From: a virus
IMG/VR virus record: IMGVR_UViG_3300050821_002122
Span: 1-64,000 of that record
Reading direction: 5' to 3' (one strand)
DNA: 64,000 nucleotides
The position numbers were made by a program, and so were the translations under genes. The notes beneath the pieces are model-generated. The model made no database searches and was not told the origin of the DNA. It was given only the letters and a program-made list of their open reading frames with translations. Positions 6,292 through 32,814 of this stretch are shown one piece after another. Within the stretch, counting starts at the first letter, position 1; every line of letters begins with the position of its first letter.

Positions 6292-7119
6292 ATGATTCCC
6301 CAGAAAGAAATAAATCTGGCCCTCAGTGGGTCAGGCTTCAAATTTCCCGCACACGTTGGCGCATTATTTGCTTTGGTCAACGCTGGTCTCAAACCCACCG
6401 ACCTGGCAGCAACCAGTGGTGGTAGTATCATTGCCGCACTGTATGCTACAGGCATGTATTCAGTAATCCAGCTACGCGATCTGGCAATGAACAATAATTG
6501 GTCCGCGATGCTGCGCCCTTCACCTTTGCTGTGGCCTTCTTTGAGCTACTGCAATGGCACAAATCTACACAAGTGGTTGCTGAAAATGACTAAAGGCATG
6601 ACGTTCGCCGATCTGGAAAATGACCTGATTATCATGGCGTCCGACATTGGTCACGAAGCACCATTTGAATTCAGCAAATTTTCCACACCGAAGACACGTA
6701 TTGCTGACGCAGTAAGGGCATCGACCGCAATACCTTTCGTGTACTCACCATATATCTACGAACCAATGTTCGAGGGTATTCAGTTGGCCGACGGTGGCCT
6801 TTGCAATAACATATCAATCGATAAGCTGAGTAGCAAGAACCCTCGCCTGGGTATTCAGCTGGTTGCAAACGACTCGACAACCGTAACACCACTGAATCGT
6901 GCTGGTCATCTGCTGAACCTGATGATGAATGCGTCGGAGGCAGCACACATCGACATCGCAGAGTTGAGTGGTGCTGAAGTTGTGTTTGTCGAAACAGGCT
7001 ATGCAAGTGGCTTGGATCGTAACATGGCAAATGGTATTCGCAGCCGCCTGTTCAACGCGGGTGTCGATGCAGTGCAGCCCTTTATCAAAACTCATAGCTT
7101 GGACCGGAGACAGCCATGA
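6292..7119 (+). CDS. Patatin-like phospholipase
   Basis: LALSGSG (oxyanion loop), ATSGG (nucleophile Ser elbow), ASTAIP and ADGG (catalytic Asp). Start set at 6292 after GAGG. Confidence 0.9.
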   Translation: MIPQKEINLALSGSGFKFPAHVGALFALVNAGLKPTDLAATSGGSIIAALYATGMYSVIQLRDLAMNNNWSAMLRPSPLLWPSLSYCNGTNLHKWLLKMTKGMTFADLENDLIIMASDIGHEAPFEFSKFSTPKTRIADAVRASTAIPFVYSPYIYEPMFEGIQLADGGLCNNISIDKLSSKNPRLGIQLVANDSTTVTPLNRAGHLLNLMMNASEAAHIDIAELSGAEVVFVETGYASGLDRNMANGIRSRLFNAGVDAVQPFIKTHSLDRRQP

Positions 7120-7331
7120 AAATCGAGGCAGCTAACCGCCTGGTTGCAACCAAACTTGACCGCAGTTCATCAAAAGCCGAACGCAACCAAAATGAAATGA
7201 ACAGCATAAAGACGCTGTTGAAAAATCAAGAAGCCATACTAAAACGGGAAAAGGACCCAACACTGCGTAAGAAATCGCAGGCTAAAATAGATACCTTGAA
7301 GCAAAAACTTCAAGAATTGGGGGCAAAATGA
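7116..7331 (+). CDS. Small basic coiled-coil protein with MKIEAA leader
   Basis: Begins MKIEAANRLVA. Lys/Glu-rich and helical. Confidence 0.75.
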   Translation: MKIEAANRLVATKLDRSSSKAERNQNEMNSIKTLLKNQEAILKREKDPTLRKKSQAKIDTLKQKLQELGAK

Positions 7332-7492
7332 AAATCGAGGCGGCCCAGCGTCTTAGGGCAGACAAGAAAGAACTGCATGACCGTATGCGGGACCTGAAGC
7401 ATTCACTTGAATCGACAACTGATCCTGAAGAGAAAGCCCGCATACAGAAAACCATAGCTGATCTGAAAGAGATCATTCGTACATCCATCTAA
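7328..7492 (+). CDS. 54-aa coiled-coil protein with MKIEAA leader (not in ORF track)
   Basis: Hand translation MKIEAAQRLRADKKELHDRMRDLKHSLESTTDPEEKARIQKTIADLKEIIRTSI*. ATGA overlap with the upstream gene. Confidence 0.75.
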   Translation: MKIEAAQRLRADKKELHDRMRDLKHSLESTTDPEEKARIQKTIADLKEIIRTSI

Positions 7493-7502
7493 GGAGAGGC
7501 AA

Positions 7503-7763
7503 ATGAAGATCGAAGCTGCTGCACGCCTACGCGCCGAGAAGTGGTCGCAACCTGTAACCGAAGATGTCAAAGAGCATCCACCGGAAGGCCTGTTCAAGAA
7601 ATCGGCTGATGCAATCGCCAAAGGCCTGAAGAAGCTGCACCCAGACTTGAAGTCGGCAATGTCTGCATTGAACTTCTACATAAACCGTGGCGGTGAGGAC
7701 GTACCGAACAAAGAGAATCTGGAGAAAGCCAAAGAGAAGCTGCGCAAACTCTACGGAGAATAA
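7503..7763 (+). CDS. DUF3175-like small protein with MKIEAA leader
   Basis: MKIEAAARLRA, then SAMSALNFYINRGG...LEKAKEKLRKLYG, a pattern I recognise as DUF3175-like. Confidence 0.7.
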   Translation: MKIEAAARLRAEKWSQPVTEDVKEHPPEGLFKKSADAIAKGLKKLHPDLKSAMSALNFYINRGGEDVPNKENLEKAKEKLRKLYGE

Positions 7764-7764
7764 C

Positions 7765-8154
7765 ATGAGCGATGAACATGAAATGAAGGCAGTCGGTACC
7801 AAGCTGATGATGTCCGACGCGGGTTACACCCTCTTTCACTGCCCAGCATGTAACAGCAAGCATGCGCTGTCGGTTGCACAGCCTAACGGTTGGGCGTGGA
7901 ACGGTTCTGGTGATGCACCCATTTTCAGTCCCTCTATTGGCGTCTCTGGCTCTGAAGTCGTGCGCGATGCCGCTGGCAACTGGACTGGTGAGTGGGTACG
8001 CGACGCTGCTGGTGAACCAGTACCTTCCTACTGCCATTCGTTTATTGGTTCCAGTGATGGCTCGACGCCTGGTCGTATTCAGTTCCTAGGTGATTGTACG
8101 CACTCTATGGCCAATCAGCTGGTAGACCTTCCAGACTTTCCGGTGGAGGTATGA
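7765..8154 (+). CDS. DUF6527-like protein
   Basis: HCPAC..H, W.WNG...P.FSPSI, CHSFI and GRIQFLGDCTH. Start set at ATG 7765. Confidence 0.65.
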   Translation: MSDEHEMKAVGTKLMMSDAGYTLFHCPACNSKHALSVAQPNGWAWNGSGDAPIFSPSIGVSGSEVVRDAAGNWTGEWVRDAAGEPVPSYCHSFIGSSDGSTPGRIQFLGDCTHSMANQLVDLPDFPVEV

Positions 8155-8489
8155 AGATCGAAGCCGCCCGTAGGCTTCATGCCTACGATAGCAAATGGTC
8201 GCAGAAGGTAGAAAAAGACATCAACATCAAGAACCAAGGTAAACCAGAGTTGAATGATGTTGGTCCGGATGCGGCTTTATTCAAGATGCAGCCCTCCGAA
8301 TTGGCCCGCACTCTAAAGAACAGGTACAAGGACGACTTCAAGGCAGCCATGTCGGCCATTTCGTTCTACGTGAATCGCGCTGGTAAGAAGCTTCTGTCGC
8401 CGGATAAGAATCGGCTCGACAAAGCTAAAGAAGAGTTGCGCAAACTTTATGGGAAATCAGATGAAGATAGAGGCAGCCAAGCGCCTTAA
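8151..8489 (+). CDS. DUF3175-like protein with MKIEAA leader (paralog of 7503)
   Basis: GGAGG RBS, MKIEAARRLHA, AAMSAISFYVNRAGKKL...LDKAKEELRKLYG. Confidence 0.7.
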   Translation: MKIEAARRLHAYDSKWSQKVEKDINIKNQGKPELNDVGPDAALFKMQPSELARTLKNRYKDDFKAAMSAISFYVNRAGKKLLSPDKNRLDKAKEELRKLYGKSDEDRGSQAP

Positions 8490-9900
8490 GGCGCACAATG
8501 GAAAAATCGCACATGAGGGCAACGTGTTGATGCTGGGCTTCGGCGGTGTTGGGCAGACGATGCTACCCCTAATGCTTAGGCACTTCACGACTCACCCCAA
8601 GAATATTCGTGTGGTAGAGAAAGATGACCATACCGAACTGTTTGCAGAGAAGTATGGTTCGACTGGTGTCCACTACGAGATACTGACTGTCACGCGGGAC
8701 AACCTGCATGAGGTATTGAGCGTGTTGAGCGCAGGTGACCTGTTGGTCAATCTGTCGACAGACATTGATGGCATCGAACTGGTAGAATGGTGCTTGCAGC
8801 AAGGTGTAATGTACATCGATACCTCAATCGAGCGGTGGCCAGACGAACCAGATGAGACGTTGCCTGATTTGGCAGAGCGCACACTGTATCACACGCATCA
8901 GGCAATACGCGAGATGGCATCGAACTATCCTGGTAGTGCGACCTGTGTTGTCACTCATGGTGCGAACCCCGGCCTCGTAACCTACTTCGTTAAAGCCGCG
9001 CTACTCGATATAGCGAAGGCTCAAGGCCTTAATGTCTATCCTCAAAACAAAGACGAGTGGGCCGAGTTGGCAAAAGACCTTGAGGTGAAGGTGATCCATA
9101 TTGCCGAACGCGATACTCAGTTGATGGACAAGCCTAAAGAGGTGAATGAGTTCGTGAACACTTGGTCATGCCACGGCTTCTGGGCAGAGGGTCGCGCACC
9201 TGCAGAATTGGGTTGGGGTACGCACGAGAACAAGCTACCTTATGGCGGCAATGAACATGACGAAGGCCCACAGAACGCTATTTACCTTAGCCAGCCGTCT
9301 GTATCGGTCCTACTCAAATCGTGGGTACCTAAAGGTGGTGCCTACAATGGTTTCTGTGTGCAGCATTCCGAGTCGGTCACTCTCAGCGAATACCTGACTA
9401 CCTCCGATGGTTCCTACAGACCGTCGGTCTACTACGTTTATTGCCCGTGCGATGCTGCGGTAGCCTCAGTGCATGAATTCAGGGGCCGTGAATTGGATAT
9501 GCAGGCGCATACCCGCGTAGCCAAAACAGAAATCGTAAGTGGTCGTGACGAATTAGGTGTCCTGCTGCTGGGCCACAAACTGAAAGCATGGTTCTTTGGT
9601 TCGCAGTTGGACATTGAGGAAGCCAATAGGCTGCTGCCAGGTGAGGGACCAACCACGATCCAAGTGGGCGCTGCCTTACTGGGTGCCATAGCATGGATGG
9701 TTGAAAATCCGAACGAAGGTTACTGCGAACCCGAGGACTTACCGCATGAGTTCGTACTAAGCCGTGCGATGCCATATCTTGGTCCTGTGGTCTCTACGCA
9801 ATCCGATTGGTCTCCGCACCAAGATCGTAACACGCTGTTCCCCAATGATGTCGATGCGGACCATCCGTGGACCTTTGCCAACTTCCAAATATCTAGCTGA
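8461..9900 (+). CDS. hss: Homospermidine synthase with MKIEAA leader
   Basis: Rossmann LGFGGVG, YIDTSIE.W, THGANPGLV, IHIAERD, NTWS..GF, HSES and YVYCPCD...S..E are all characteristic of bacterial-type HSS. Start set at 8461 (MKIEAAKRLKA). Confidence 0.92.
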   Translation: MKIEAAKRLKAHNGKIAHEGNVLMLGFGGVGQTMLPLMLRHFTTHPKNIRVVEKDDHTELFAEKYGSTGVHYEILTVTRDNLHEVLSVLSAGDLLVNLSTDIDGIELVEWCLQQGVMYIDTSIERWPDEPDETLPDLAERTLYHTHQAIREMASNYPGSATCVVTHGANPGLVTYFVKAALLDIAKAQGLNVYPQNKDEWAELAKDLEVKVIHIAERDTQLMDKPKEVNEFVNTWSCHGFWAEGRAPAELGWGTHENKLPYGGNEHDEGPQNAIYLSQPSVSVLLKSWVPKGGAYNGFCVQHSESVTLSEYLTTSDGSYRPSVYYVYCPCDAAVASVHEFRGRELDMQAHTRVAKTEIVSGRDELGVLLLGHKLKAWFFGSQLDIEEANRLLPGEGPTTIQVGAALLGAIAWMVENPNEGYCEPEDLPHEFVLSRAMPYLGPVVSTQSDWSPHQDRNTLFPNDVDADHPWTFANFQISS

Positions 9901-9907
9901 GGTCAAT

Positions 9908-10192
9908 ATGAAAATCGAAGCAGCTAATCGGATACAAGCAACAGAACGCCGCGTCAATGGTTGGCTTTGGAAGCCAGATGCACATACAAAAGCGAAGAGT
10001 CTAGCCAATGCTGTATTGCTCGTATCAGCCGACAAAGAGATGCGGAATTTGGCTAGCAACATACTCAGTAACGGTATTTACGATACTAAAGCTGAGTTAT
10101 CTATAGCACTAAAGAAACTTGGTCGCGAATTAACCAAAAGTATTAAGCCTATGGTAGGCGATATTCTTACCAGCTTAAAGGATTCAAAATGA
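9908..10192 (+). CDS. Hypothetical protein with MKIEAA leader
   Basis: GAGG RBS, MKIEAANRIQA. Confidence 0.7.
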   Translation: MKIEAANRIQATERRVNGWLWKPDAHTKAKSLANAVLLVSADKEMRNLASNILSNGIYDTKAELSIALKKLGRELTKSIKPMVGDILTSLKDSK

Positions 10193-10995
10193 AAATTGAA
10201 GCAGCCCGTAGACTTAGGGCATCTGATTACCGAGTACTGGCCGCCCAACTCGACTACGAGCAGTGGTCAGCAATCCTCAGTCACATCAATGAGCCGCAAA
10301 AGGTGGTAGCATTAGACGTATGGAAATCGGTCAAGACTGGGCTCGATCAGATCAACAGCCTGGTGCAACATGTCAAGAAACTGATCGAAGAGGTAGCCCA
10401 CGAAGTAGGCTTAGAGATCAAAGATATCATCGAAACCTTCCGCACGAAGCCTATGCTGGCCTTTCTGAAGGCATGCAAATTCAGTATCATGACGTTGGTG
10501 AAGCCGCTCAAGGCATTCGCTACTCTGTACAAAGACGGCATTCTCAAGATATTCGCCGAGTTGCACGACACCAAAGCGTTCCAGCAGTTACACAGCGGTG
10601 CTATAAAGGTCGATGAGTTCCTTGCGCGCTATCCTCTTCTACGGCAACTGGCTGGTCCTGCCATAGCAGGCTTGCTGATTTGGATTTGGCTAACTGGCAA
10701 TTTTACAGCACATCCAGATTTAGACATGGACCTAGTTGCGCTTATAAAGGCAGCTTTGGGCGGTCACTGGTCAGCGGCTGAGTTGTTTACCTCTCCTCAG
10801 GGATTGCTTATGATGGGTCTGCTGGTAGCAGGTCTCACCGCTCCTTGGCCATCGCCAGCATGGCTCACCGGCTCTGTGCCCTTCAATATATTGGTGGCAT
10901 TGTGCTACACGGCGTACAAACATGCGCCGACGAATCCGACAGTCAAACAAGGACTGTCACATCTCAAATCTAAGATCAAGTTCTCCCACGTGTGA
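10189..10995 (+). CDS. Membrane-segment protein with MKIEAA leader
   Basis: MKIEAARRLRA. Helical N-terminal half, then about three hydrophobic segments (AGPAIAGLLIWIWL, GLLMMGLLVAGL, VPFNILVALCY). Confidence 0.75.
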   Translation: MKIEAARRLRASDYRVLAAQLDYEQWSAILSHINEPQKVVALDVWKSVKTGLDQINSLVQHVKKLIEEVAHEVGLEIKDIIETFRTKPMLAFLKACKFSIMTLVKPLKAFATLYKDGILKIFAELHDTKAFQQLHSGAIKVDEFLARYPLLRQLAGPAIAGLLIWIWLTGNFTAHPDLDMDLVALIKAALGGHWSAAELFTSPQGLLMMGLLVAGLTAPWPSPAWLTGSVPFNILVALCYTAYKHAPTNPTVKQGLSHLKSKIKFSHV

Positions 10996-11001
10996 GGTCA
11001 T

Positions 11002-11886
11002 ATGCAACTATGTCCTAAATGCGGATCACCTCCGTCAGCGGTCTACGATGGCAACATCGCTGAATGCTATAACCATCATTTGTTCCGACTAAAGAAGAAA
11101 ACGAAAGGCTCTGCCATGCCCTCCTCAGTATATGATAAATCGTGCCCAACCTGCGCTGGTAAAATCGTGTCAACCGCTCGTATGGTTGATGATAGCCAAG
11201 CACCAACTTCGTGCATTAATGGGCATACGTTCATGCGCAGCGAAGCAGTAGCAGCACAAGTGAAAGCAGCCAAGCCTACATCGGTATACGACCTACCGTG
11301 CCCTACGTGTGCTGGTAAGATTATATCTACTGCCAAGATGAACGACAGCACTCAAGCCCCAACAAATTGTATTAACGGGCACACGTTCATGCGGGCAGAG
11401 GCCTATGCGTCAGCCAATAACAAGCTCGCACCGTTCTTCGGGCAGAACGCACTGAGTGCCAGTACCAAGCCTTTCAAGATCGAGGCAGCTGCCCGTCTGA
11501 AAGCAACCTTGTTGACCGCTGTTGAGAAGTTGATGGCAAAGTCCACGCCGGTTACGAAGATCGCAGAGAAGGGTATGCGCGATATTGACCATCAAATGGC
11601 GCTACTGGGTTATCAGGCGAAGACGGTTCAGAAACGTGCGTTCTATACCACTGACTTCGTTGAGCGCACCGACAATGTGGACGATGAACCGAAAGTATTC
11701 TCCATGACTGGCTGGCATGGTAACGGTCACTACGGTGACGAGAAAACCATCCTTGAGTTCTACGACAACCAGCGCAGTGAAAAACCAATCATCTCCATCG
11801 GCGTGTTGAGCGAAGAGAACATCAACGAGAAACGCCAGTTGGAGGTCGTCAAAGAAATTCTGGACTATGTACGCAAGCACGGGTGA
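11002..11886 (+). CDS. Zn-ribbon repeat protein with internal KIEAAARLKA motif
   Basis: Three CxxC...CxNxH units, then FKIEAAARLKA at about nt 11473. Confidence 0.7.
   Translation: MQLCPKCGSPPSAVYDGNIAECYNHHLFRLKKKTKGSAMPSSVYDKSCPTCAGKIVSTARMVDDSQAPTSCINGHTFMRSEAVAAQVKAAKPTSVYDLPCPTCAGKIISTAKMNDSTQAPTNCINGHTFMRAEAYASANNKLAPFFGQNALSASTKPFKIEAAARLKATLLTAVEKLMAKSTPVTKIAEKGMRDIDHQMALLGYQAKTVQKRAFYTTDFVERTDNVDDEPKVFSMTGWHGNGHYGDEKTILEFYDNQRSEKPIISIGVLSEENINEKRQLEVVKEILDYVRKHG
11125..11403 (+). repeat. In-frame tandem duplication, 156-nt (52-aa) period
   Basis: SVYDKSCPTCAGKIVSTARMVDDSQAPTSCINGHTFMRSEA at 11125 versus SVYDLPCPTCAGKIISTAKMNDSTQAPTNCINGHTFMRAEA at 11281. Confidence 0.9.
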
Positions 11887-11889
11887 CCT

Positions 11890-12171
11890 ATGAAAATTCA
11901 TGCCGCACGCAGGCTGTTGGCAGCCGATATGACGCTGCGCAATCTGTTGAATATCGATGGTGATCTTATCAGCCTGCACGGCAATCGCGCTCAGTACAAG
12001 CTGACTACTGCGTTGTACAAAGCCATGCAGATACTCGACAAACGATTGGGTTCACATAAGGAGGGCAAGCAAGGCTCGACAGATATCTATGTTTGGGAAG
12101 TACCTAACCTAGGCGTCTGTATCTATTCACCATCTGGTGGTGATCCCACTTTGGAGATTTATGACCGTTAA
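11890..12171 (+). CDS. Hypothetical protein with leader variant MKIHAARRLLA
   Basis: Direct translation. Confidence 0.7.
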   Translation: MKIHAARRLLAADMTLRNLLNIDGDLISLHGNRAQYKLTTALYKAMQILDKRLGSHKEGKQGSTDIYVWEVPNLGVCIYSPSGGDPTLEIYDR

Positions 12172-12978: not shown

Positions 12979-13302
12979 ATGAAGATCGAAGCCGCTACTC
13001 GCATCAAAACCGTATACGCTGCTCAACAGGTCGTTGCTGCTGACGCGAACGAAAAGAAAGCCATCAAGTACCTGACGGAGGTGGGCTTCGCTGGTCTCAC
13101 GCTGAAAAGCAGTGGTGACAACGTCATCAAGTTCAAGTTCGAGTCCTACGACAAGAAGAAACTGGAGAAGGCTCTCGGCAAACCGAAGGCTTCCAAGTCG
13201 GAAGATGCGGGCGCCATTCGCTACGACATTCCTGGCGCTGGTGTCGTCGCTGTGTGGCCGGCGAAGAACGAAGTCATGATGAAAAACAGCAAACGCAATT
13301 GA
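12979..13302 (+). CDS. Hypothetical protein with MKIEAA leader; domain shared with the N-terminus of the 13923 protein
   Basis: MKIEAATRIKT. GF.GL......N.IKF....YDK..LE..LGKPK...GVVAVWP....V..KNSKR is shared with 13923. Confidence 0.75.
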   Translation: MKIEAATRIKTVYAAQQVVAADANEKKAIKYLTEVGFAGLTLKSSGDNVIKFKFESYDKKKLEKALGKPKASKSEDAGAIRYDIPGAGVVAVWPAKNEVMMKNSKRN

Positions 13303-13344: not shown

Positions 13345-13926
13345 ATGATGAAAATCGAGGCATTAACCCGTCTTATTTCTGTTAGTATAGTTCCCCAATC
13401 AACGGCTTTCTCGGAAGCACATGGTAAAGAAAGTCTGGAGCTCTACAGTAAGAGACCAGATCAGTACGTAAACCTGAATCGTAAAATCGTTAAGACCAAC
13501 ATTAGTGGCTTTACGATTGAGGTTGATAAACTCGGTGTCATGTACGATATATTCTTGGTGCATGACGGTAAAGCCGTTGGTCTTCTGGCTCTCACACCGT
13601 CCTCCCTGCTGCGACATGTTTATATCCCTGCGTCTTTTTTCGCAAAGGCGTACCGTGGTTTAGGCTACGCCAAGGCTTTGTACAAGTGGGTGCTAGACAA
13701 TAAAATGTCGCTGCTGAGCGATACCACTCAAAGTAAATACAGTTCAGCACTATGGCAGTCTCTGATTAAGGAATATGAAAACATTTGGGTTACCACAAAT
13801 CGCTTAGGAGTTGAGTTACTACCTGATAGCGATTTGGACTACTTTACCGAACCAGGTGCGCGTATGATCCTGATTCAGCGTGGCCTTGGTAAAGACCAAT
13901 TTATCAAAGAGAACAAAATCAAATGA
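13345..13926 (+). CDS. GNAT-fold acetyltransferase-like protein with leader variant MKIEALTRL
   Basis: AYRGLGYAKALY (acetyl-CoA-binding motif A), then LLSD..QS.....LW..L. Confidence 0.65.
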   Translation: MMKIEALTRLISVSIVPQSTAFSEAHGKESLELYSKRPDQYVNLNRKIVKTNISGFTIEVDKLGVMYDIFLVHDGKAVGLLALTPSSLLRHVYIPASFFAKAYRGLGYAKALYKWVLDNKMSLLSDTTQSKYSSALWQSLIKEYENIWVTTNRLGVELLPDSDLDYFTEPGARMILIQRGLGKDQFIKENKIK

Positions 13927-15128
13927 ACATCACTGCTGCTGTGGCCAACAGGCAAATGGCTCTGGACTTTCTGCGTGGTTTAGGTTTCCACGGTCTACGC
14001 TTCAAGGCTGAAGCCGACAACATGATTAAGTTCTTTTACTCCGATTACGATAAGCATGTATTGGAGGCCCAGCTCGGTAAGCCCAAGAGCGCCGATAAAA
14101 GCATTCGTTACAACTACCGCAAGGATGGTGTAGTTGCTGTTTGGCCAAACAACAAGACGGTAATTCTGAAGAATAGCAAGCGAGGCCTAAAGTCACCACC
14201 AGAGATAGACGAGCCACCGAAACCTGAGGTGAAGCCACCAGTTGATGTCGATAAACCGGAAGGTCCTCAGTTGCCGAAGAGTGGAACTGAGAACGATGAT
14301 GACAAGATACCACACGTAGAGATAGGTCCAGTTCTCCGTGCGCAGTTTGGCAGAGCCCGAGTGCACCGTGAATTGCAGTTGCCTTACATTAAAGAGTTAT
14401 GGCATTATCTTAACCAACACAAATTCCACAACGCACTGCATATGCCCAACCTGAGGGTCATGAAGGCGGTCAAAGGAACTAGCTTTAGGCTGCGCGGTTA
14501 TTGGCAGGCATATAACCGAGAGTTAGGAATGAGCCCGCGCTTGTTCAACGGTTCGGTCGAGTTCTTTGTGGAGGTCTTGTTGCATGAGATGTGTCACCAA
14601 GCTGTCAGCGAAATAGACAAGGTCCGGGATCGCACAGAGCAAGGACATGGTCCTCATTGGATTGCATGGATGCGCAAAGTAGGGCTCAACCCTAATCGAT
14701 ACGATCCTACCGAGAATAAGGTCTTTATGACCAATGAGGAACGGGATGCGTTGGAAGAACGTCAGGCGAAGCAGCGCAATATTCTTGACGTTGTGAAGGA
14801 AGAGGGCCTAGAACACACTGCACCCAAACCTATGATGAATGCGACAGTGCTGTGGAAAGCAGAAATGCACGACGGCATAATTGTGTGTAAGGCATTCGGT
14901 AAGAAGAATATGTGGGCCTTCTTGCCCTATGCTCAGATACGTACCTACAAGCACGGTCAGCTATTCAACTTCCCTTTAGTTTCGGAAGACTCGGTCTACA
15001 AACCACGCAGTGCCATGCCATTAGGATTGGGTGACCAATTGGTTGAGATGACCTTGACCGTCAAACAGCATTACGATACCAAAAAGCAAGATCGTGAAAA
15101 CAGACGCCTGGACAAGTTATGGTCGTAA
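13923..15128 (+). CDS. SprT-like zinc metalloprotease with N-terminal repeat domain and Pro-rich linker
   Basis: VLLHEMCHQ (HExxH) and GHGPHW..WM..VG are SprT hallmarks. A PEVKPP linker precedes them. Confidence 0.8.
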   Translation: MNITAAVANRQMALDFLRGLGFHGLRFKAEADNMIKFFYSDYDKHVLEAQLGKPKSADKSIRYNYRKDGVVAVWPNNKTVILKNSKRGLKSPPEIDEPPKPEVKPPVDVDKPEGPQLPKSGTENDDDKIPHVEIGPVLRAQFGRARVHRELQLPYIKELWHYLNQHKFHNALHMPNLRVMKAVKGTSFRLRGYWQAYNRELGMSPRLFNGSVEFFVEVLLHEMCHQAVSEIDKVRDRTEQGHGPHWIAWMRKVGLNPNRYDPTENKVFMTNEERDALEERQAKQRNILDVVKEEGLEHTAPKPMMNATVLWKAEMHDGIIVCKAFGKKNMWAFLPYAQIRTYKHGQLFNFPLVSEDSVYKPRSAMPLGLGDQLVEMTLTVKQHYDTKKQDRENRRLDKLWS

Positions 15129-15879: not shown

Positions 15880-16580
15880 TGGCTGCGCCATTTTTGGCCC
15901 ACCTCGGTATCAGCGACATCGATCAGGCACGTAGCCCTACAGCAGATGCTTTCCCGCATGCGTTCAACATCAATTGCAAACCGCAATGGGATCAGGCAGT
16001 AGGGCGTGTGGAACCTAGCGATGACCCCAAGGTTGACTGGGGCCTAGCTATCAGGAACTACGTTGAGCTATGTACCTCCACCGATCGGTATCCTTTCTCG
16101 AACATGAAGCAGTCGAGCAATGACCAAATCGTTGAGCACCTCAAGAATGCACGCAGGGCCGTGGTCAAATTCCTGAACAACTCCAAGTTCCTTAACCACG
16201 TGCAGATCAGAACCACTGCGCGTAAGGTAAAGATGAACAACATGGGGTTCTCGCTCGATGTGTTTGGTCAAGTCTATATCAAGGACCCCACATTCGTTAG
16301 GTGGCTCTTGGAAATGCCGTATCCTGGTTTCCGCATCAAGCATGAAGGCAGGTACATCAAACATATAGGTAATGATGTGACGATGGTGGTCTATAACGAA
16401 GGTGCCAACGGAACGCAACGGTGGCACATCGGCTACGAGATAAACTGCCGTCTGTTCCCTGATCTCCCAGGTCGTAATTTGCCGTCTAAGGCTGAGTTGG
16501 AGAAATTCATATTGGAAGTCTTGTTCATGCCAGTGCTGCGCTCCTCTCGGCCATACGGATATCACCGGAGGCTCTTATGA
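15876..16580 (+). CDS. Hypothetical protein
   Basis: 234-aa ORF with GAGG upstream, coupled to both neighbours. Confidence 0.6.
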   Translation: MMAAPFLAHLGISDIDQARSPTADAFPHAFNINCKPQWDQAVGRVEPSDDPKVDWGLAIRNYVELCTSTDRYPFSNMKQSSNDQIVEHLKNARRAVVKFLNNSKFLNHVQIRTTARKVKMNNMGFSLDVFGQVYIKDPTFVRWLLEMPYPGFRIKHEGRYIKHIGNDVTMVVYNEGANGTQRWHIGYEINCRLFPDLPGRNLPSKAELEKFILEVLFMPVLRSSRPYGYHRRLL

Positions 16581-16747
16581 AAATCACTGCAAGCAAACGG
16601 TTGCAAGCAGCTAAAGAAAGAGACCAGAAAGATGCTGACCGCTACCGAGCAATACGAAAACGTGTTCTGGAAACTGGTACCTTAACGCTGAAGTCACCAG
16701 GTACACCAGAAGCATTCGATAAGGCTATCGACAAAGTTCTCCTGTAG
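16577..16747 (+). CDS. 56-aa protein with leader variant MKITASKRLQA (not in ORF track)
   Basis: Hand translation MKITASKRLQAAKERDQKDADRYRAIRKRVLETGTLTLKSPGTPEAFDKAIDKVLL*. GGAGG RBS and ATGA overlap. Confidence 0.7.
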   Translation: MKITASKRLQAAKERDQKDADRYRAIRKRVLETGTLTLKSPGTPEAFDKAIDKVLL

Positions 16748-21994: not shown

Positions 21995-22384
21995 ATGGTA
22001 GCCCGGTCCTTAGGTAACCACGCGCCTGGTTTCAAAGGTAGGCAGATGAGCGGCATCGGAACGGCGGCTAAGCCTATGGGACTGGGCTGGGATTCGTTCG
22101 TTGCCACCGACTCAGGCGATCAGCTGGTGATCCAGCTTTCGTCTATCGTGATAGGTGACATTAACTTCGGTGTCTTCTTTCAGGCATCGTCGGCGATTAC
22201 CGTCGAGTTCACGCTGAGCAATGTGGCCACTGCGACTGATCCCGATCCTGCTGCGAATGCGGCAACGATATGGGGTAACTCACTGTCGGTTCCCGCTGGT
22301 CAGATCACTCAGGCACCCGTACTGTTCACTGCCTGCCGTATCACATTCACTGGTCCTTGCGAGGGCTACATAGGAGTCCGATAA
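21995..22384 (+). CDS. Small beta-rich structural protein
   Basis: Position in the head module and a beta-strand-like pattern. Exact start uncertain. Confidence 0.55.
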   Translation: MVARSLGNHAPGFKGRQMSGIGTAAKPMGLGWDSFVATDSGDQLVIQLSSIVIGDINFGVFFQASSAITVEFTLSNVATATDPDPAANAATIWGNSLSVPAGQITQAPVLFTACRITFTGPCEGYIGVR

Positions 22385-23139
22385 TGTTTGAACTCCATAC
22401 TGAGCGTGATATACGCCACTTCTCGGAGCAGAAACCGAATGTCATCTCGGCTGCAGTTCAGTCGGAACAGGTAACCGATGCAAACGAAACACCGCAGTTG
22501 CTCAGCGGTCTCGACTGCGTAACCTGGTTACCTTACGCCGCCAAGTTGTACCACATCAGCCCTCGAATAGAGGACTACATTCTGGTGGTCACTCCTATCT
22601 GCCCATCGGATATCCCGAATCGAAACGGTATCGGGTTCCCTTTGAATGAGCTGACAAGATTCCAAGAACCTCCTGTCGCCCGGATGGCATACAAGACTTG
22701 GAGTGGTTGCCCCGTTCACTACGAACACGCGAATGAGGACCACACCAAAGCTTATGGCGTCATTCTGGATACCTCACTGCATAAGGTGTCTGGTTACGGT
22801 CAAGGCAAGCTGTGGAAGGTCATGGGTCTGCTGGCAATAGATCGGCTGAAGTACCCAAAGATGGCAGAGCGTATCCTGCACAATGAGGTAAACACTTACT
22901 CGATGGGCGCTTTAGTTGATTCGTTCTCGTGTTCGCATTGTGGTGAGCCGATGTCGGAGAAGTCCTACTGCCAGCATCTGAACCCGCGCAACGAAATCGA
23001 TTGGCAGGCACTGCCGAACTACCGAGGTCCAACATCGCTGGCATTCCGTAACAGCCATGGTATCCAAGGTATCGAAACTAGTATCGTCGAATCACCAGCG
23101 TGGTCGACGGCACTAAGCGACCACATCCTAACTCGATAG
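22384..23139 (+). CDS. Prohead (head maturation) protease
   Basis: PVHYEH (His), TYSMG (Ser), CSHC Zn motif and ETSIVESPA. Lies upstream of the scaffold and capsid genes. TAATG overlap at the start. Confidence 0.8.
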   Translation: MFELHTERDIRHFSEQKPNVISAAVQSEQVTDANETPQLLSGLDCVTWLPYAAKLYHISPRIEDYILVVTPICPSDIPNRNGIGFPLNELTRFQEPPVARMAYKTWSGCPVHYEHANEDHTKAYGVILDTSLHKVSGYGQGKLWKVMGLLAIDRLKYPKMAERILHNEVNTYSMGALVDSFSCSHCGEPMSEKSYCQHLNPRNEIDWQALPNYRGPTSLAFRNSHGIQGIETSIVESPAWSTALSDHILTR

Positions 23140-23146: not shown

Positions 23147-23347
23147 ATGAAAATCGAAGCCGCCACTCGCCTGAAGGCATTTGAAGATGCCGATAAGGAA
23201 CGCATCGCAGACCTCCAACGTGACATCATGAACCTTGAGGAAGACGTCAAGGACATGGAAGAGAACGATGAGGACGCAACACAGGAAAGAAAGCAGTTGG
23301 AAGACCGTCGGGAAGAGCTACGAAAACTCAAAGAAAGCAAACAGTAA
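23147..23347 (+). CDS. Acidic coiled-coil protein with MKIEAA leader
   Basis: MKIEAATRLKA. Lies between the protease and scaffold genes. Confidence 0.75.
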   Translation: MKIEAATRLKAFEDADKERIADLQRDIMNLEEDVKDMEENDEDATQERKQLEDRREELRKLKESKQ

Positions 23348-23379: not shown

Positions 23380-24702
23380 ATGCCTATCAAAGAACAACTG
23401 GCCAAGGTAAAAACCAAAGCTGGTTCTACGCACGATGGTAATGGTGGCGACGTGGCAATTCCGAATGCCGATCAGGATTTGGAAAACAACATGTTCGCCG
23501 ACACGCTGATCGATCCCGAAGACATGACCGGCGGCAGTACGCACTCCATGACTGCCAGCAAGAAGCGCGTCAAGGCTGACGCTGATTGCATCCAGCAGAA
23601 CGTGGGTACGTTGCCTAACGATTCGGAACCAGCCAAAGGCTATCTGGAAAACGCATCCGAAGAAGACTTCGAGGTCGATGACGACGAGATGGACGAAGAC
23701 GAAGTTGCGGCCGGTTTGGACCCAGCACTGACCAACAACAATTCGTCGACGCCGCTGGAAGCTGACGCCGAAGATGCTGATTGGGACGCACCGATCAGCA
23801 ACGCCGAAGACGACATCGAAGAAGGTGAAGGCGCTATCGCCGACGACGCGCAGGTTGAGGTCGAGGAACCAGAAGAAATGGCTTCCGGCGACGAAGAAAT
23901 GTCGTTGATGGACATCGATGAGGTTCCTGACGAAGACACCAATGTGGCGTTCGCTACCTTGGGTACTCGCGTCATGGTCATTCGCGCCAATCGCATCATC
24001 GCCACGATGACTGCCAAAACCGCCGCTTCGCTGGGTCGCGATGATGTCTATCTGACCGATCAGTTCCAAGAAGTAACGGCGATGGAAATCGGCAAACAAG
24101 GTCTTCGCAAAGGCTTGCGTTCGATGGGTTTCATCGAAGCCAAGGTGAACGTTGCCAAACGTAAAGCAGTCAATGCTCGTGTGGCATTGCTGGTCACCAA
24201 GCAAACGGCTGCCGTCCGCAAGGTCGCACAGGTCAACGCTGCTGCCATGGAACAAGCGATGGCTATCGCAGCCGTCGGTATTAACCGCAAATTCTTCCAA
24301 GGTGCAAAGAACGAACTGCGCGATGCACTGGAAGCAGCAATGGTTCAGGCAGGCGTGCGCAATGCTGGTCGTATCTTGACCACTGCATTCGCTGAAGCAG
24401 GTCCTGCCTACGCCAAGCAAATCTGCGAACTGGCCACCAAGCTGTCGATGATGCCGAAAGAAACCCGTGCTGGTTTCGTGGCTGCGTTGGACATGACTTC
24501 TGGTGACATGGAAGACGACGCCGATACGATCCCGGTCGGTGAGGAATCCATGGACGGTACAGAAGAAGACGATGTGATGCCAGCAACCATGGCAACCGCA
24601 GGCGTCACGCTTCGCAAAACCGGTAACACCGTACGTTCGGGTATGTTGTCCGTAGAAGCATCGGCGCGTTTGGCAGGTGACTTGCCGATGTTCATTCGTT
24701 GA
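23380..24702 (+). CDS. Scaffold/prohead core protein
   Basis: Very acidic disordered N-terminal half and helical C-terminal half. Position between protease and capsid genes. Strong codon bias. Confidence 0.7.
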   Translation: MPIKEQLAKVKTKAGSTHDGNGGDVAIPNADQDLENNMFADTLIDPEDMTGGSTHSMTASKKRVKADADCIQQNVGTLPNDSEPAKGYLENASEEDFEVDDDEMDEDEVAAGLDPALTNNNSSTPLEADAEDADWDAPISNAEDDIEEGEGAIADDAQVEVEEPEEMASGDEEMSLMDIDEVPDEDTNVAFATLGTRVMVIRANRIIATMTAKTAASLGRDDVYLTDQFQEVTAMEIGKQGLRKGLRSMGFIEAKVNVAKRKAVNARVALLVTKQTAAVRKVAQVNAAAMEQAMAIAAVGINRKFFQGAKNELRDALEAAMVQAGVRNAGRILTTAFAEAGPAYAKQICELATKLSMMPKETRAGFVAALDMTSGDMEDDADTIPVGEESMDGTEEDDVMPATMATAGVTLRKTGNTVRSGMLSVEASARLAGDLPMFIR

Positions 24703-25451: not shown

Positions 25452-26543
25452 ATGAATCAGAAAGTCAAAATCGGCGCGGCCAAAGTGCCAAGCATCGCTG
25501 TCGCAGCTTCCGAGTACCGGTTCCAAGGAAGCAACGAACGCGCGGTCGGCCAAAACGGCGAGCTTAACGCATCCAGCAAACGCGATCTGCTGAACCAACA
25601 GGTCAAGTTCCTGAGTGCAGCCTCCAGTGGCGCCCTGATGTCGAACGAAGCCAAGCTGAACGAGCAAGCCGAAGTCCGCGCATCCCGCGAGCTGACGCTG
25701 GCTGCATTCAACGACGCATCGGTGCATCGCGTCCTGGGTGAGCGTATGGCCGACAGCCTGTTCATCACTGCCAACCGTCAGGGCTTCATGCGCAAGTATC
25801 TGGCGCGCGTGCAAGTCGACCAAGGTACGGTGCCTCGCTTCCCACTGCGTACCAAAAACGTGACTGCTGTATGGTCGACTTCGCCAACGCGTATCGACAG
25901 CCAGATCACTCGCGACAAATGGTACACCCCGCCAGAACTGTCGATTGTGGCACGCCCGTTCGTTACCCAGAACGAGCTGAACCAATCGGCCGGCGACGTG
26001 CTGCAAGAGAAGTACGTCGAGGCGACGGAAGCGATCATGGTTGCAGAAGATCGCCTGTGGTACAACCAGGTCAACCAAATCGTCGGTATCGACAACAACC
26101 TGTCGATCATCAGCGGTCAGCTGACCCCGTTCACCCTGATGCAAGTGCAGACCAACGTCACTCGCTGGGGCCTGAAAGCACCGCACATCCTGATGGCTTC
26201 CGATCTGTATCAGGACATCGTCGGTAACAGCGAGTTCTACAACGCTGTCGATCCTGTCGCTCGCCACGAATTGCTGCTGACTGGCGAACTGGCTGTGATG
26301 TACGGCATGACCATCACTTCGGATGCGTATCGTCACCCTGAACACAAGGTGCTGAGCCAAGGCGAGTTCTTCGTCATCTCCGCAGCGCTGAACCCCGGTG
26401 CCTACTCGGATCGCGGTGGCCTGAACAGCAAGCCGACCGACATCGTCAACGAGAAAATCCCAGGCATGGGCTGGGTGATCCATGAAGAAATCGCAATCTC
26501 GGTTGCCAACAGCCGCTCGGTCGCCAAAGGCGTTCGCGTCTAA
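25452..26543 (+). CDS. Major capsid protein (HK97-fold type)
   Basis: 363 aa with the strongest codon bias in the region. Synteny protease-scaffold-decoration-MCP. Contains LQEKYVEATEAIMVAEDRLWYN and a C-terminal EEIAISVANSRSVAKG pattern. Confidence 0.8.
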   Translation: MNQKVKIGAAKVPSIAVAASEYRFQGSNERAVGQNGELNASSKRDLLNQQVKFLSAASSGALMSNEAKLNEQAEVRASRELTLAAFNDASVHRVLGERMADSLFITANRQGFMRKYLARVQVDQGTVPRFPLRTKNVTAVWSTSPTRIDSQITRDKWYTPPELSIVARPFVTQNELNQSAGDVLQEKYVEATEAIMVAEDRLWYNQVNQIVGIDNNLSIISGQLTPFTLMQVQTNVTRWGLKAPHILMASDLYQDIVGNSEFYNAVDPVARHELLLTGELAVMYGMTITSDAYRHPEHKVLSQGEFFVISAALNPGAYSDRGGLNSKPTDIVNEKIPGMGWVIHEEIAISVANSRSVAKGVRV

Positions 26544-26597: not shown

Positions 26598-27008
26598 ATG
26601 AAGCAATACAACAAATCTCTGGACTTCATAACCCTGGCGATGGCGACGGCGCGCAAAGGCAACATGAAGTTGGCCGCCCGTCTGTTTGCCAGTGCAGTGA
26701 AAGAGCCGGACGCGAAACGTGCCATCGGCATTCTGGAAGCATCCAACAAGCAGGCGTACCAAGCTATCACGGCGGCTCGCAAGCCAGTCGTCGCTGCTGA
26801 GGACGACATGGACTACGGTGACGAAAGCGACATCGAAGACCTGGTCGGTGACGGCGGCGAAGAGGAAGAAGAAGGAGAGCAGATGGAAGTCGAGTCGGCC
26901 GAAGAAGAGGACGACGAAGAAGACGACTTCGACGACGAAGCTTTCGCCAGCGTGCTGGCTTCGATGGTTCAGGTCAAAGCAAAACCTGCAGCAAAGAAAC
27001 GTAAGTAA
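26598..27008 (+). CDS. Head-associated acidic protein
   Basis: AAGGAG RBS, helical N-terminus, VVAAEDD, then a Glu/Asp-rich tract and a basic tail. Confidence 0.65.
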   Translation: MKQYNKSLDFITLAMATARKGNMKLAARLFASAVKEPDAKRAIGILEASNKQAYQAITAARKPVVAAEDDMDYGDESDIEDLVGDGGEEEEEGEQMEVESAEEEDDEEDDFDDEAFASVLASMVQVKAKPAAKKRK

Positions 27009-27698: not shown

Positions 27699-27707
27699 GG
27701 AGCTGTT

Positions 27708-27887
27708 ATGAAGAAAGTCATAAACCTGACGCGGGTTACGCAGCAGGTCGACGTGCGCCACGCGGATGGTAAGCTTGATCGCGTACAGATCATGCCGCGT
27801 GGCCGCACTACACTACGAGAAGGCATGGTAGTCGATCCACGGTGGGAACAGAAGAATCCCAACGTCATCAAATCTGAGGAGGTCTAA
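27708..27887 (+). CDS. 59-aa protein immediately upstream of the sheath gene (not in ORF track)
   Basis: TAAGGAG RBS. MKKVINLTRVTQQVDVRHADGKLDRVQIMPRGRTTLREGMVVDPRWEQKNPNVIKSEEV* abuts the sheath ATG. Confidence 0.7.
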   Translation: MKKVINLTRVTQQVDVRHADGKLDRVQIMPRGRTTLREGMVVDPRWEQKNPNVIKSEEV

Positions 27888-29828: not shown

Positions 29829-29870
29829 CGGATAGGGCGTCTACATGAGCCCCTAAACAAGGAGTAGCAA

Positions 29871-30374: not shown

Positions 30375-30395
30375 GTAAATAGCTAGTGCTTCAAA

Positions 30396-30463
30396 ATCTG
30401 TTTAGTGCGAAAAAAGGTTTAGCGGCCTCTGGTGTGCCACATCACACCTAGCATTAAACAGAT
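30396..30463 (+). ncRNA. Predicted structured RNA element in the endonuclease leader
   Basis: 13-bp outer helix 30396-30408/30451-30463 (one G-U) enclosing a GGTGTG/CACACC hairpin at 30431-30448. Confidence 0.45.
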
Positions 30464-30486
30464 CCTATTACCTATGTGGAGGACGT

Positions 30487-31572
30487 ATGAACAACAAAGA
30501 ATTCTACAATGCCCTCTTGGCATTGCGCGGGAAATATAAAGGTCGGTCTCTATGGGCACAATTGCTTAATGGTTTTCCGCAAGAGACGAAGCGACTAGAG
30601 AAGGTATTAGGTAAGCGATTCAGTTCGGAGGTTCTGTACAATTATCTCTTACCTAATGCACGAAAAACATGTATTACATGCAGTGCTGGTCCGTTGAAAT
30701 TTATGACCTTCTATGACGGTTACCGAAGCTACTGTGGGCCAGCATGTTCTCACGGTACTGCTGAAGTAATTGAAAAACGAGTTGCAACCTGCAGGCAACG
30801 GCTTGGTGTTGATAATCCAAGTCAGAGTAAGAAGATCAAGCGCAAGAAAATTAAAACAAGCCGTAAGAATAATGGATGTGATTATCCCATGCAGAATAGC
30901 AGAGTGCAGGCGCTTGCGGTCACTACAAGACTAGAGAAGACTGGTTTTGAATACACCACGCAAACAAAGGATTTCCAGATAAAACGTAAGCGAACCTTAG
31001 TTGGAAAGTACGGCACTTCTTGTTTGGATGCAGTACCGGAAATCAAAGAGCGGAAACAAAATACCACAATGAAAAATTATGGTGTGCTTAATCCCTCCCA
31101 GTCACCGGAAGTACACGCAAGAAAATTGAGGACTGGCTACAGTACAAAGGTCGTTAAGATTGGCAAACGTATTTTTCATCTGCAAGGCTACGAACCGCAA
31201 GCGCTTATGTATTTGCTAAGTATAGGTGTAACACTAAATAACGTGGAGGTGCCTGAGGTCGGTATCCCATACGAATGTTCCAAAACAGGTAAAAGTAGAA
31301 TATATTTTCCGGACTTCGTTCTGCATGGACCCAGATGGGACACTATGCTTGAAATTAAAAGTACATGGACTGCCTTGTTGAAGAATGAGAGTGTAAGCAG
31401 AAATATTCATGATAAGCATAAAGGTGTGGACCTAGTTGGTCATAAATTCTTACTTCTTATCATGAATAGCGATGGGACTTATCATCGTCACATGGAATAT
31501 GACAAAGTACGAAATGATGAGCGGGACTTTCGCGAGAGTATCTTAGCATCCGAATTAAATCTACTAGTATAG
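30487..31572 (+). CDS. Free-standing putative homing endonuclease (basic repeats plus PD-(D/E)xK domain)
   Basis: Repeated NPSQS..IK.K...T...YG units, then RIYFPDF...LEIKSTW. Visibly AT-richer than the flanking structural genes. Confidence 0.65.
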   Translation: MNNKEFYNALLALRGKYKGRSLWAQLLNGFPQETKRLEKVLGKRFSSEVLYNYLLPNARKTCITCSAGPLKFMTFYDGYRSYCGPACSHGTAEVIEKRVATCRQRLGVDNPSQSKKIKRKKIKTSRKNNGCDYPMQNSRVQALAVTTRLEKTGFEYTTQTKDFQIKRKRTLVGKYGTSCLDAVPEIKERKQNTTMKNYGVLNPSQSPEVHARKLRTGYSTKVVKIGKRIFHLQGYEPQALMYLLSIGVTLNNVEVPEVGIPYECSKTGKSRIYFPDFVLHGPRWDTMLEIKSTWTALLKNESVSRNIHDKHKGVDLVGHKFLLLIMNSDGTYHRHMEYDKVRNDERDFRESILASELNLLV

Positions 31573-31577
31573 AGGCG

Positions 31578-31605
31578 AAAAAGCCAGACATATCATGTCT
31601 GGCTT
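31578..31605. terminator. Terminator between convergent genes
   Basis: AAGCCAGACAT / ATGTCTGGCTT 11-bp stem. A T run follows on the - strand. Confidence 0.7.
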
Positions 31606-31610
31606 ATTGG

Positions 31611-31991
31611 TTAGTGAATATTCAAATCCCTTGTATGGCAGTCACATTTTGGATCGTCACATTCCGCGTCACCGTCAGCGAATATAACGCTTTCTGCTTG
31701 CGCGATAAGCTCTTGCGGCGTCCAGAACTTTCGATCAACTTCTTTTAATTCAACGAAGTCGAGACCATCATTGGCAGCATCTTTCGGTAAGTCGCCTTGC
31801 TCATTCATTGGCTCACCATATAAAAGGCGGCATAAAATAGCGTGTACTATGTAAGCAGTACCATAGAGTAAAGCTTTTCGTAGGTCGTCGTCAACCTCAC
31901 CGCCAAAACAATCTTCGATGTACTCATTGGTTATCGCTTCTACTACATCATGTTTTGCTTGGTCCTTTTCAAAATCAGATTCGTATATCAT
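31611..31991 (-). CDS. Acidic hypothetical protein
   Basis: 126-aa ORF with an AAAGGA RBS and an upstream AGTAAATA box. Confidence 0.6.
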   Translation of the reverse strand: MIYESDFEKDQAKHDVVEAITNEYIEDCFGGEVDDDLRKALLYGTAYIVHAILCRLLYGEPMNEQGDLPKDAANDGLDFVELKEVDRKFWTPQELIAQAESVIFADGDAECDDPKCDCHTRDLNIH

Positions 31992-32015
31992 TTTCGATCC
32001 TTTCGTTAAACATAT

Positions 32016-32023
32016 TATTTACT
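32016..32023 (-). promoter_or_regulatory. Putative early/middle promoter box AGTAAATA
   Basis: TATTTACT on the + strand, about 25 nt upstream of the - strand start at 31991. Confidence 0.45.
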
Positions 32024-32029
32024 ATCCAT

Positions 32030-32037
32030 CAATTTTA
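32030..32037 (+). promoter_or_regulatory. Putative late-promoter box CAATTTTA
   Basis: At the divergence point, directly before AAGGAG and ATG 32049. Confidence 0.5.
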
Positions 32038-32048
32038 AGGAGCCTATC

Positions 32049-32144
32049 ATGCACTGGTATGCCTGGGTATTAATCGCAGTTGGTGTGGTCATCGGCCTGG
32101 TTATCAAGATGGCTGCGGATTTCGGTAAAGGCGGTCCGACATGA
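32049..32144 (+). CDS. 31-aa single-pass membrane peptide (not in ORF track)
   Basis: AAGGAG RBS. MHWYAWVLIAVGVVIGLVIKMAADFGKGGPT*. ATGA coupling to the next gene. Confidence 0.6.
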   Translation: MHWYAWVLIAVGVVIGLVIKMAADFGKGGPT

Positions 32145-32533
32145 CGCCACAGGATCAAGAAGTCTTTGAACCTTGGCAGCATGGCGACTGCGCTCGGGCT
32201 GTGATAGCATCACTGCTTGATTTACCAATCGCGGAGGTTCCTAACTTTGCGGCATTGGCTACCGAAGGCAATGGTTTCTGGAACATGACTTACGATTGGT
32301 TGGAAGCTCGAGGTCTAGAGTTCTTGCCACAAGTGAGCTTGGTCTACTATTGGAGACCCGGTGACCCAGACCTATATCATTACATGATGGGACCTTCGCC
32401 TCGCGGTGAGGGTATCTATCATGCAGTGGTTGGGCTGAACGGTGTACCGTATTTCGATCCTCATCCCAGTCGGGCCATGCTTGCCGGTGAGCCCTCACAA
32501 TGGCAAATTTCAATAGTAAGGAAAGCAAAATGA
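32141..32533 (+). CDS. Hypothetical protein, possible papain-like Cys-His-Asp fold
   Basis: GDCARAVIASLL ... YHAVVG ... YFDPHP. Confidence 0.5.
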   Translation: MTPQDQEVFEPWQHGDCARAVIASLLDLPIAEVPNFAALATEGNGFWNMTYDWLEARGLEFLPQVSLVYYWRPGDPDLYHYMMGPSPRGEGIYHAVVGLNGVPYFDPHPSRAMLAGEPSQWQISIVRKAK

Positions 32534-32814
32534 AAATCGAAGCCGCACAGCGACTTAAGGCTGCTGGTCCTCCGAATAGCCTCAAGAACACTATCATGCG
32601 AGGTTTGACTTCTGCTGGTCATAAGGTTGATCGACAAGGTGACTCAGTATTCGTCGTGCATGCGCGTTTCAACGAAGTAGCTGAAGTTCTTGAGGCATTA
32701 GGCTGGGAACATGCTGCCAAGTATAGCGAGTACACCAAACGCGGTGAGGAGTATTCAATAGCCTACACCACCAGCGGTGATGCAACAAAACTTGAGTTCA
32801 ATTACGACGCATAA
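32530..32814 (+). CDS. Hypothetical protein with MKIEAA leader
   Basis: MKIEAAQRLKA at ATG 32530 (ATGA overlap). Confidence 0.75.
   Translation: MKIEAAQRLKAAGPPNSLKNTIMRGLTSAGHKVDRQGDSVFVVHARFNEVAEVLEALGWEHAAKYSEYTKRGEEYSIAYTTSGDATKLEFNYDA

Follow-up and report, generated by a model that had tools for sequence, protein, structure and literature searches.

Why should 13 proteins with mostly unrelated bodies, encoded among the head genes of a large phage, begin with the same 11 residues? The question is raised by virus record IMGVR_UViG_3300050821_002122, a genome of 189,689 bp (~190 kb) related to Ralstonia phage RSL1, whose first 64 kb (64,000 nucleotides) constitute the window analysed here. 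In its head-gene block, 13 open reading frames (ORFs), all on the + strand, open with a leader of consensus M-K-I-x-A-A-x-R-L-x-A. The way in which large phages choose the proteins packed into the head has been settled only for T4. The data presented below make it fairly probable that the leader is a capsid-targeting propeptide, similar in kind to the capsid-targeting sequence (CTS) of T4 and trimmed after an Ala residue.

Occurrence and composition of the leader

The 13 leaders were found at the coordinates, and with the peptides, that a first-pass annotation had listed (Table 1). A six-frame scan of the complete genome gave 14 matches with scores of 30.4–40.3, the next best being 21.2; the fourteenth, besides the 13 N-terminal ones, was an in-frame internal copy at 11473 that the annotation had overlooked. 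With a log-odds profile of the clade, the 13 carriers scored 21–31 and the top N-terminus outside the head-gene block 6.1, while the reversed genome yielded zero N-terminal matches. The block encodes a head-tail connector, a prohead protease, a scaffold-like protein, a virion structural protein, the capsid protein, sheath and tube. The carriers account for about one third of the + strand genes at 2.3–34 kb (13 of ~40), versus 0 of the ~246 genes called outside this set, which comprise those of the - strand replication block and every tail gene. The annotation was thus right in placing the carriers among head genes and none in the replication block, and in noting that one of them, at 23147, lies between the genes for the protease (22384–23139) and the scaffold-like protein (23380–24702). 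It had also considered that the leader might be common on non-late genes elsewhere in the genome, and none was found outside the head-gene block.

To describe the leader further, 119 non-redundant carriers were collected from loci in IMG/VR, metagenomes and cultured phages; they belong to 74 body families of the RSL1/Motura/BCSR5/BcepSauron clade and have a median length of 128 residues. The leader consists of two [VIL]-x-A units flanking an invariant Arg, and a third unit often follows downstream (40 of 119 carriers versus 29 expected). A5, R8 and L9 are nearly invariant, which is in part a product of the carrier selection itself. Ala occupies position 11 in 93 of the 119 carriers, and in 72 of them the leader is followed directly by A, S or T.

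Conservation as a peptide and diversity of the bodies

The leader is conserved as a peptide, not as DNA. All four Ala codons occur at position 5 and all six Arg codons at position 8, and identical codons were counted in 259 of 653 same-residue pairs, compared to 224 expected from codon usage. The identity of the 30 nt upstream of the leaders was 0.30, versus 0.28 in controls, so that the flanking DNA is at background. This agrees with the scrambled codons, and the selection acting on the peptide, that had been reported from the first reading of the sequence.

The same holds for the lack of relationship between bodies. Homology past the leader, sought among the 13 carriers as the sign of a single paralogous family, was clear only for 7503 and 8151 (E-value 1e-16, DUF3175); the pairs 11890/12979 and 7328/23147 were borderline (E-values 0.003–0.009), and several distinct Pfam folds were present. 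The recognisable carrier bodies are GNAT, DUF3175, Nudix, homospermidine synthase, SprT, exonuclease, an RMF-like protein and a T7-like kinase, with folds that include Rossmann, GNAT, Nudix, kinase and zincin. The GNAT, Nudix, T7-like kinase, SprT and exonuclease bodies overlap the effector domains of polyvalent proteins, which are thought to be delivered by virions (PMC5512222). A membrane protein, which had been named among the 13 carriers, was rejected on hydropathy: the highest value over 19 residues was only 1.55, and none of the carriers is clearly a membrane protein.

Distribution and portability in related phages

The capsid protein of this phage is 70–71% identical to those of phiRSL1, BcepSauron, BcepSaruman and BCSR5, and 59% to that of Motura. 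When an exact degenerate DNA pattern was run over 2.9 million viral contigs, 17 stretches were retrieved, 16 of them from the RSL1/Motura clade. Whole-genome counts of the leader pattern were 5–16 in six clade genomes (controls 0–5), and at the background level of 0–1 in four more distant phages, PaBG, PhiXhv-15, GR11A and RHph_N46, although phages of these more distant groups have a homologous protease (~35% identity). As PaBG is without the leader, its proteome (PMC7412058) is uninformative on the tag. A profile search with the leader alignment over 1.84 billion representatives returned only repeat-driven false positives (VWA repeats and CRISPR-array ORFs), the motif being too short. The statement of the annotation that this tag is much more widely used than that of T4 therefore holds per genome (13–16 carriers versus three) and fails across phages, the leader being confined to one clade. 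In RSL1 itself (L005 15212, 15802, 21627, 22804, 23123, 24736 and 32368) one additional residue separates the first Ala of the leader from the R-L core, and for this reason the RSL1 copies escape strict patterns.

Concerning the gene neighbourhood, all 13 N-terminal matches in the 200 kb of Motura, which was outside the profile training set, lie in structural blocks, and the profile found no N-terminal leader in the ~190 Motura genes at 10–110 kb. Three outlying carriers of Sauron and BCSR5 sit among tail and lysis genes, and Sauron has four further matches outside the head block, some of them inside genes. All the carriers examined are in structural gene blocks, behind a candidate late promoter element. 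This putative element, YAATTT(T)A, is located 20–60 nt before structural and cargo operons (2308, 12944, 13898, 16804, 21502, 23346 and 48175 of the window, and 64523 of the genome). Another element, TAGTAAAT, is found mostly ahead of genes of other regions and has one copy at 16745.

The SprT, homospermidine synthase and 15448 families exist both with and without the leader among orthologs. The leader is thus portable, gained and lost on orthologs. The annotation had proposed degenerate leaders at 13923 and 15448. The first is plausibly a decayed leader, because one SprT ortholog carries the full leader (L064:574); the L002 ortholog has the [VIL]-x-A part only. The second was discarded: it opens with the first helix of a conserved domain, as do leaderless orthologs. 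The BCSR5 ortholog of 15448 has a leader-like segment added ahead of this domain.

Among the 120 nearest homospermidine synthases, 17 have the leader, in at least two groups of a quick tree on which at least four changes are needed; those of RSL1 and Motura are without it. Many close homologs of 8461–9900 that are without the leader (P0132–P0192) share other short N-terminal leaders, one group starting with M-[NR]-L-x-D-I-K and another with M-K-L-x-E-I. Homospermidine synthase thus seems to be tagged by different leaders in different lineages.

The [VIL]-x-A motif in capsid, scaffold and acidic head proteins

The motif of the leader recurs in head proteins of this phage (Table 1) and of its relatives, for which the counts given here are pooled over non-independent samples. 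In 30 clade capsid proteins, 162 [VIL]-x-A-[AS] sites were counted over the first ~90 residues versus 20 expected, an 8-fold enrichment, and 18 versus 19 expected in the cores. No significant enrichment was found in the capsid fronts of three outgroups. The motif-rich front precedes the region alignable with phage G gp27. The predicted capsid protein fold was of low confidence (predicted local distance difference test, pLDDT, 53) and was used only to note that residues 1–20 are unmodelled.

The scaffolds of the relatives contain 174 [VIL]-x-A-[AS] sites versus 48 expected, with 20 of 21 proteins individually enriched (p<0.05), while the T4-type [VIL]-x-E is depleted (126 versus 194 expected). 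In scaffold and capsid protein, the [VIL]-x-A sites vary freely apart from P3 and P1. The full leader is embedded in the disordered part of the scaffold in three or four relatives, and a leader-like segment in the homologs of the post-capsid acidic protein from two, Motura and L037.

The prohead protease and its predicted cutting rule

The protease model (pLDDT 86) matched T4 gp21 (5JBL) with a Foldseek E-value of 5e-4, and with Z 12.2 and a root-mean-square deviation of 3.0 over 148 residues in VIA-align; the next fold matches were herpes proteases, those of varicella-zoster virus (Z 7.0) and human cytomegalovirus (Z 5.9). Residues 183–198 form an insert with an invariant Cys-x2-Cys...Cys-x-His pattern, likely a zinc finger.

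Herpes proteases cut after x-x-Ala, and the sites of pseudorabies virus (PrV) assemblin are predicted after Ala (PMC4498786). Phage G gp19 belongs to the same protease family as the enzyme considered here, and N-terminal sequencing indicated that the phage G capsid protein of 282 residues has a mature form of 255 (PMC5646251, Table 1), from which we infer that P1 is Ala27. The maturation-site statistics, which are motif counts from sequence only, fit a hydrophobic P3, Ala at P1 and a small P1'. A T4-type specificity for Glu was rejected in view of the depletion of [VIL]-x-E in the clade scaffolds and of the L-x-A end of the leader. The annotation had set the cut after residue 11, which is too specific. 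Since position 11 is not always Ala and A5 is nearly invariant, it is possible that cutting takes place after A5, after A11 or at the third, downstream site.

In the Bxz1-like Mycobacterium phage Rizal (L085), the scaffold displayed only a weak K/R-x-A enrichment. Rizal gp94 fuses a homolog of the protease to a long C-terminal region, and gp101 and gp102 (27462 and 29341) have in common an N-terminal segment of ~18 residues that contains T-A.

Interpretation of the leader and alternatives

It seems reasonable to interpret the leader as a capsid-targeting propeptide that would act in the following way. Late in infection, the carriers would bind the assembling prohead core or inner shell by means of the leader, probably as a short helix with the fixed residues I3, A5, R8 and L9. 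The gp21-fold protease would then cut after the Ala of [VIL]-x-A, and, to judge from the motif distribution, would by the same rule break down the scaffold and the capsid protein front. By analogy with T4, the trimmed bodies would stay in the head and be ejected with the DNA, to act as host-takeover, counter-defence or DNA-condensing factors. Such a short tag, not tied to any one body, could bring genes into the cargo when gained and release them when lost, and fused cargo could be separated by cutting at the internal copies. The targeting role advanced by the first-pass annotation is thus favoured by the motif in the capsid front, scaffolds and post-capsid acidic protein, the gp21-fold protease, the location in structural, probably late blocks, the effector-like cargo and the gain and loss among orthologs; what did not stand were details, 15448 and the membrane protein.

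Several observations weigh against this interpretation. Position 11 is not Ala in 26 of the 119 carriers, and the near invariance of other positions owes something to the selection mentioned above. The scaffold of the window, tested alone, had no [VIL]-x-A-[AS] enrichment (3 sites versus 2.3 expected), and the pooled relatives are not independent. Ala-rich helices somewhat favour hydrophobic-Ala pairs at i/i+2, as seen in replication proteins (59 versus 51). The phage G cut site has Ala, not V/I/L, at P3 and supports only P1 = Ala. The homospermidine synthase of RSL1 is functional without a leader (PMC9992855), and an enzyme of 479 residues is unlike the small internal proteins of T4. Finally, the SNF2/DarB-like protein (16862), a plausible head cargo, is without the leader in this phage.

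Among the alternatives, the one that survives best, itself rather unlikely, is that of an uncut docking helix, which would mimic the C-terminal capsid-binding tail of the scaffold or dock elsewhere on the virion, the carriers being untrimmed minor virion proteins that are not ejected. In the scaffold tail, hydrophobic residue, Ala, Leu and small residue are spaced as in the leader, and the tail of this phage is almost leader-like; herpes scaffolds bind the capsid via their C-terminus (PMC4498786), and the variable position 11 would fit a helix that is not cut. However, the leader profile gave the tail a score of 8.1 in this phage and ≤0.6 in all relatives, because the tail is without the invariant Arg, and it was discarded as a general copy of the leader. 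A docking helix also leaves unexplained the 8-fold enrichment in the capsid front, the small residue after the leader and the extra downstream sites.

It is unlikely that the leader serves merely as core filler or as a propeptide for the protease to remove, which would make the carriers substrates of head maturation or keep toxic enzymes inactive until that stage, packaging being directed otherwise or absent. Both halves of the leader fit the predicted cut motif, K/R-rich [VIL]-x-A runs also occur in scaffold linkers, and in SPN3US most head proteins are packaged uncut (PMC10052503), so that cleavage and packaging are separable. On the other hand, the fixed spacing and the invariant R8-L9 go beyond what the scaffold and capsid sites need, and in T4 the determinants of targeting and cutting reside within one peptide of 10 residues (PMC9026906).

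Recognition by some other factor unrelated to the head, such as the GNAT (13348), the SprT protein (13923), a chaperone or a host protease for which the leader would be a degron, is improbable. The presence of a GNAT and a SprT protease among the carriers would fit it, but PaBG also has a SprT-annotated gene and no leaders, the GNAT carries the leader itself and has homologs in only some relatives, the carriers occur only in structural, probably late blocks, and capsid and scaffold proteins contain the motif as well. A by-product of DNA or ancestry (a promoter or ribosome-binding-site cassette, selection on translation start, or the remnants of one paralog family) is highly improbable and largely excluded by the scrambled synonymous sites, the background flanks, the internal copies without a start codon and the unrelated bodies of diverse fold, even though all leaders start with ATG-AAR, identical codons are slightly above expectation and some carriers are paralogous (7503/8151 and the 12979 family).

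Returning to the targeting propeptide, a wider scheme can be offered only tentatively. The phage G/Bxz1/RSL1 lineage would combine an Ala-cutting, herpes-like protease with portable leaders specific to each lineage; in the RSL1/Motura clade, the 11-residue tag alone would load any protein, up to an enzyme of 480 residues or a self-separating polyprotein, for injection, giving a fast-changing set of 10–16 effectors per phage. If the targeting function is true, packaging of the T4 kind would operate in an unrelated capsid lineage as well, under another cutting rule; there would be a second packaging tag of natural origin, and the injected proteins of Ralstonia, Burkholderia and Achromobacter phages, mostly 'hypothetical', could be listed from sequence alone. 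Most such tags have been seen in metagenomes, whereas the present one is borne by phages in culture (Motura, BCSR5, BcepSauron and RSL1) and is directly testable.

Comparison with known systems

In T-even phages, a CTS is the one element common to internal proteins that are otherwise diverse (PMC3012670). The cleavage by T4 gp21 falls behind L/I-x-E, and the 10 residues of the CTS serve both targeting and cutting (PMC9026906). The leader resembles the CTS of IPI, IPII and IPIII in being a basic N-terminal peptide of 10–11 residues on mutually unrelated, strain-variable, mostly small and probably late proteins (PMC9026906, PMC3012670), a peptide whose end matches the predicted motif of the gp21-fold protease that the phage itself encodes, which is also scattered in scaffold and capsid propeptide. 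It differs in being Ala-rich with an R-L core and a predicted cut after Ala instead of Glu, in being carried by 13–16 proteins per genome instead of three, with internal copies in fused proteins and scaffolds, and in belonging to a capsid of the phage G/Bxz1/RSL1-like lineage, not that of T4 gp23. Moreover, targeting and cutting are proven in T4 and predicted here. To judge from its composition, the leader is a peptide that works like the T4 CTS and is not the T4 CTS itself, having neither sequence similarity to it nor an L/I-x-E end. The principle is known from T-even phages; what is different is the capsid lineage, the cutting rule, the larger cargo set and the availability of cultured members.

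The likeness to the herpesvirus assemblin system concerns the protease fold, the predicted cut sites with Ala at P1, hydrophobic P3 and small P1', to be compared with the herpes R- and M-sites (PMC4498786), and a scaffold with a cut-like site just ahead of a conserved C-terminal tail. However, the present protease has T4 gp21 as its nearer match, and it is a protein separate from the scaffold; in the literature consulted, no portable cargo leader was found described for herpesviruses. SPN3US (gp245, phiKZ-type) is also a large phage whose prohead protease strips N-terminal propeptides from head and ejection proteins, but it cuts after A-x-E, and in the parts of PMC10052503 consulted no common 11-residue leader was found reported.

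Phage G has a homologous protease (gp19, phrog_18299) and capsid protein (gp27), with a cut after Ala27 implied by the mature length (PMC5646251), and several of its small late genes share a K/R-R-L-I-rich start of their own. Its leader sequence is different, and its cut site has Ala at P3. Small genes in the neighbourhood of the phage G head module, gp10, gp12, gp13, gp17, gp20, gp38 and gp53 (L087 4953–31315), have in common a basic start that contains an R-L-[IV] core and then K-x-A/S, a candidate leader of similar kind in a phage that is cultured; no published targeting function was found in the literature consulted. No description of the 11-residue leader was found in the literature searched, which did not cover the RSL1 genome and structure papers or the phage G proteome paper.

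Coordinates of the features and other observations

Table 1. Leaders and motif-bearing head genes of the window (all coordinates refer to the window)
Feature	Position	Strand	Basis or remark
Leader on 71-residue basic coiled-coil ORF (7116–7331)	7116..7148	+	ORF start, scans
Leader on 54-residue ORF (7328–7492), start overlapping preceding stop	7328..7360	+	ORF start, scan
Leader on DUF3175 protein (7503–7763)	7503..7535	+	PF11373, E 1e-12
Leader on DUF3175 paralog (8151–8489)	8151..8183	+	E 1e-16 to 7503
Leader on homospermidine synthase (8461–9900), 479 residues	8461..8493	+	ORF start, homologs
Leader on 94-residue ORF (9908–10192)	9908..9940	+	ORF start, scan
Leader on 268-residue ORF (10189–10995), third [VIL]-x-A directly after	10189..10221	+	ORF start
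Internal leader copy, residue 158 of ORF 11002–11886	11473..11505	+	Six-frame scan
Leader on 93-residue ORF (11890–12171)	11890..11922	+	ORF start
Leader on 107-residue ORF (12979–13302), paralog of SprT protein N-domain	12979..13011	+	ORF start, homology
Leader on GNAT acetyltransferase (13348–13926)	13348..13380	+	PF00583, above cut-off
Probable decayed leader on SprT-like metalloprotease (13923–15128)	13923..13955	+	Orthologs
Leader on 56-residue ORF (16577–16747)	16577..16609	+	ORF start, scan
Prohead protease, T4 gp21/herpes assemblin fold, invariant His115 and Ser173; proposed leader-trimming enzyme	22384..23139	+	Model, fold comparison
Leader on 66-residue acidic coiled-coil ORF between protease and scaffold genes	23147..23179	+	ORF start
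Scaffold-like protein: acidic disordered ends, conserved core, conserved C-terminal tail (~24646–24699)	23380..24702	+	Role inferred from position and composition
Front ~90 residues of major capsid protein (25452–26543), putative propeptide	25452..25724	+	5 [VIL]-x-A-[AS] sites vs 0.85 expected
Post-capsid acidic protein	26598..27008	+	5 [VIL]-x-A-[AS] sites vs 0.8 expected
Leader on 94-residue ORF (32530–32814) downstream of tail tube gene	32530..32562	+	ORF start, scan

The ORF with the internal leader (11002–11886) is polyprotein-like, with two Cys-rich repeats followed by a linker rich in x-x-A sites and then the leader, an arrangement matched by locus L075 9985–11034. Relatives also fuse bodies that are separate genes in the window (L075 9985–11034, L017 7083–7646 and L048 4579–5097); the fusions include DUF3175 with the 11002 C-domain, which has internal leaders, and a 12979-like domain with a 23147-like coiled coil. 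Look-ups in the ESM Atlas gave no usable family for the 10189 and 12979 proteins.

The SNF2/DarB-like helicase of the head block (16862–21448) has 1528 residues, and a leader-like N-terminal extension is present in its RSL1 ortholog only. A homing endonuclease gene is inserted after the tail tube gene, at 30487–31572 of the window.

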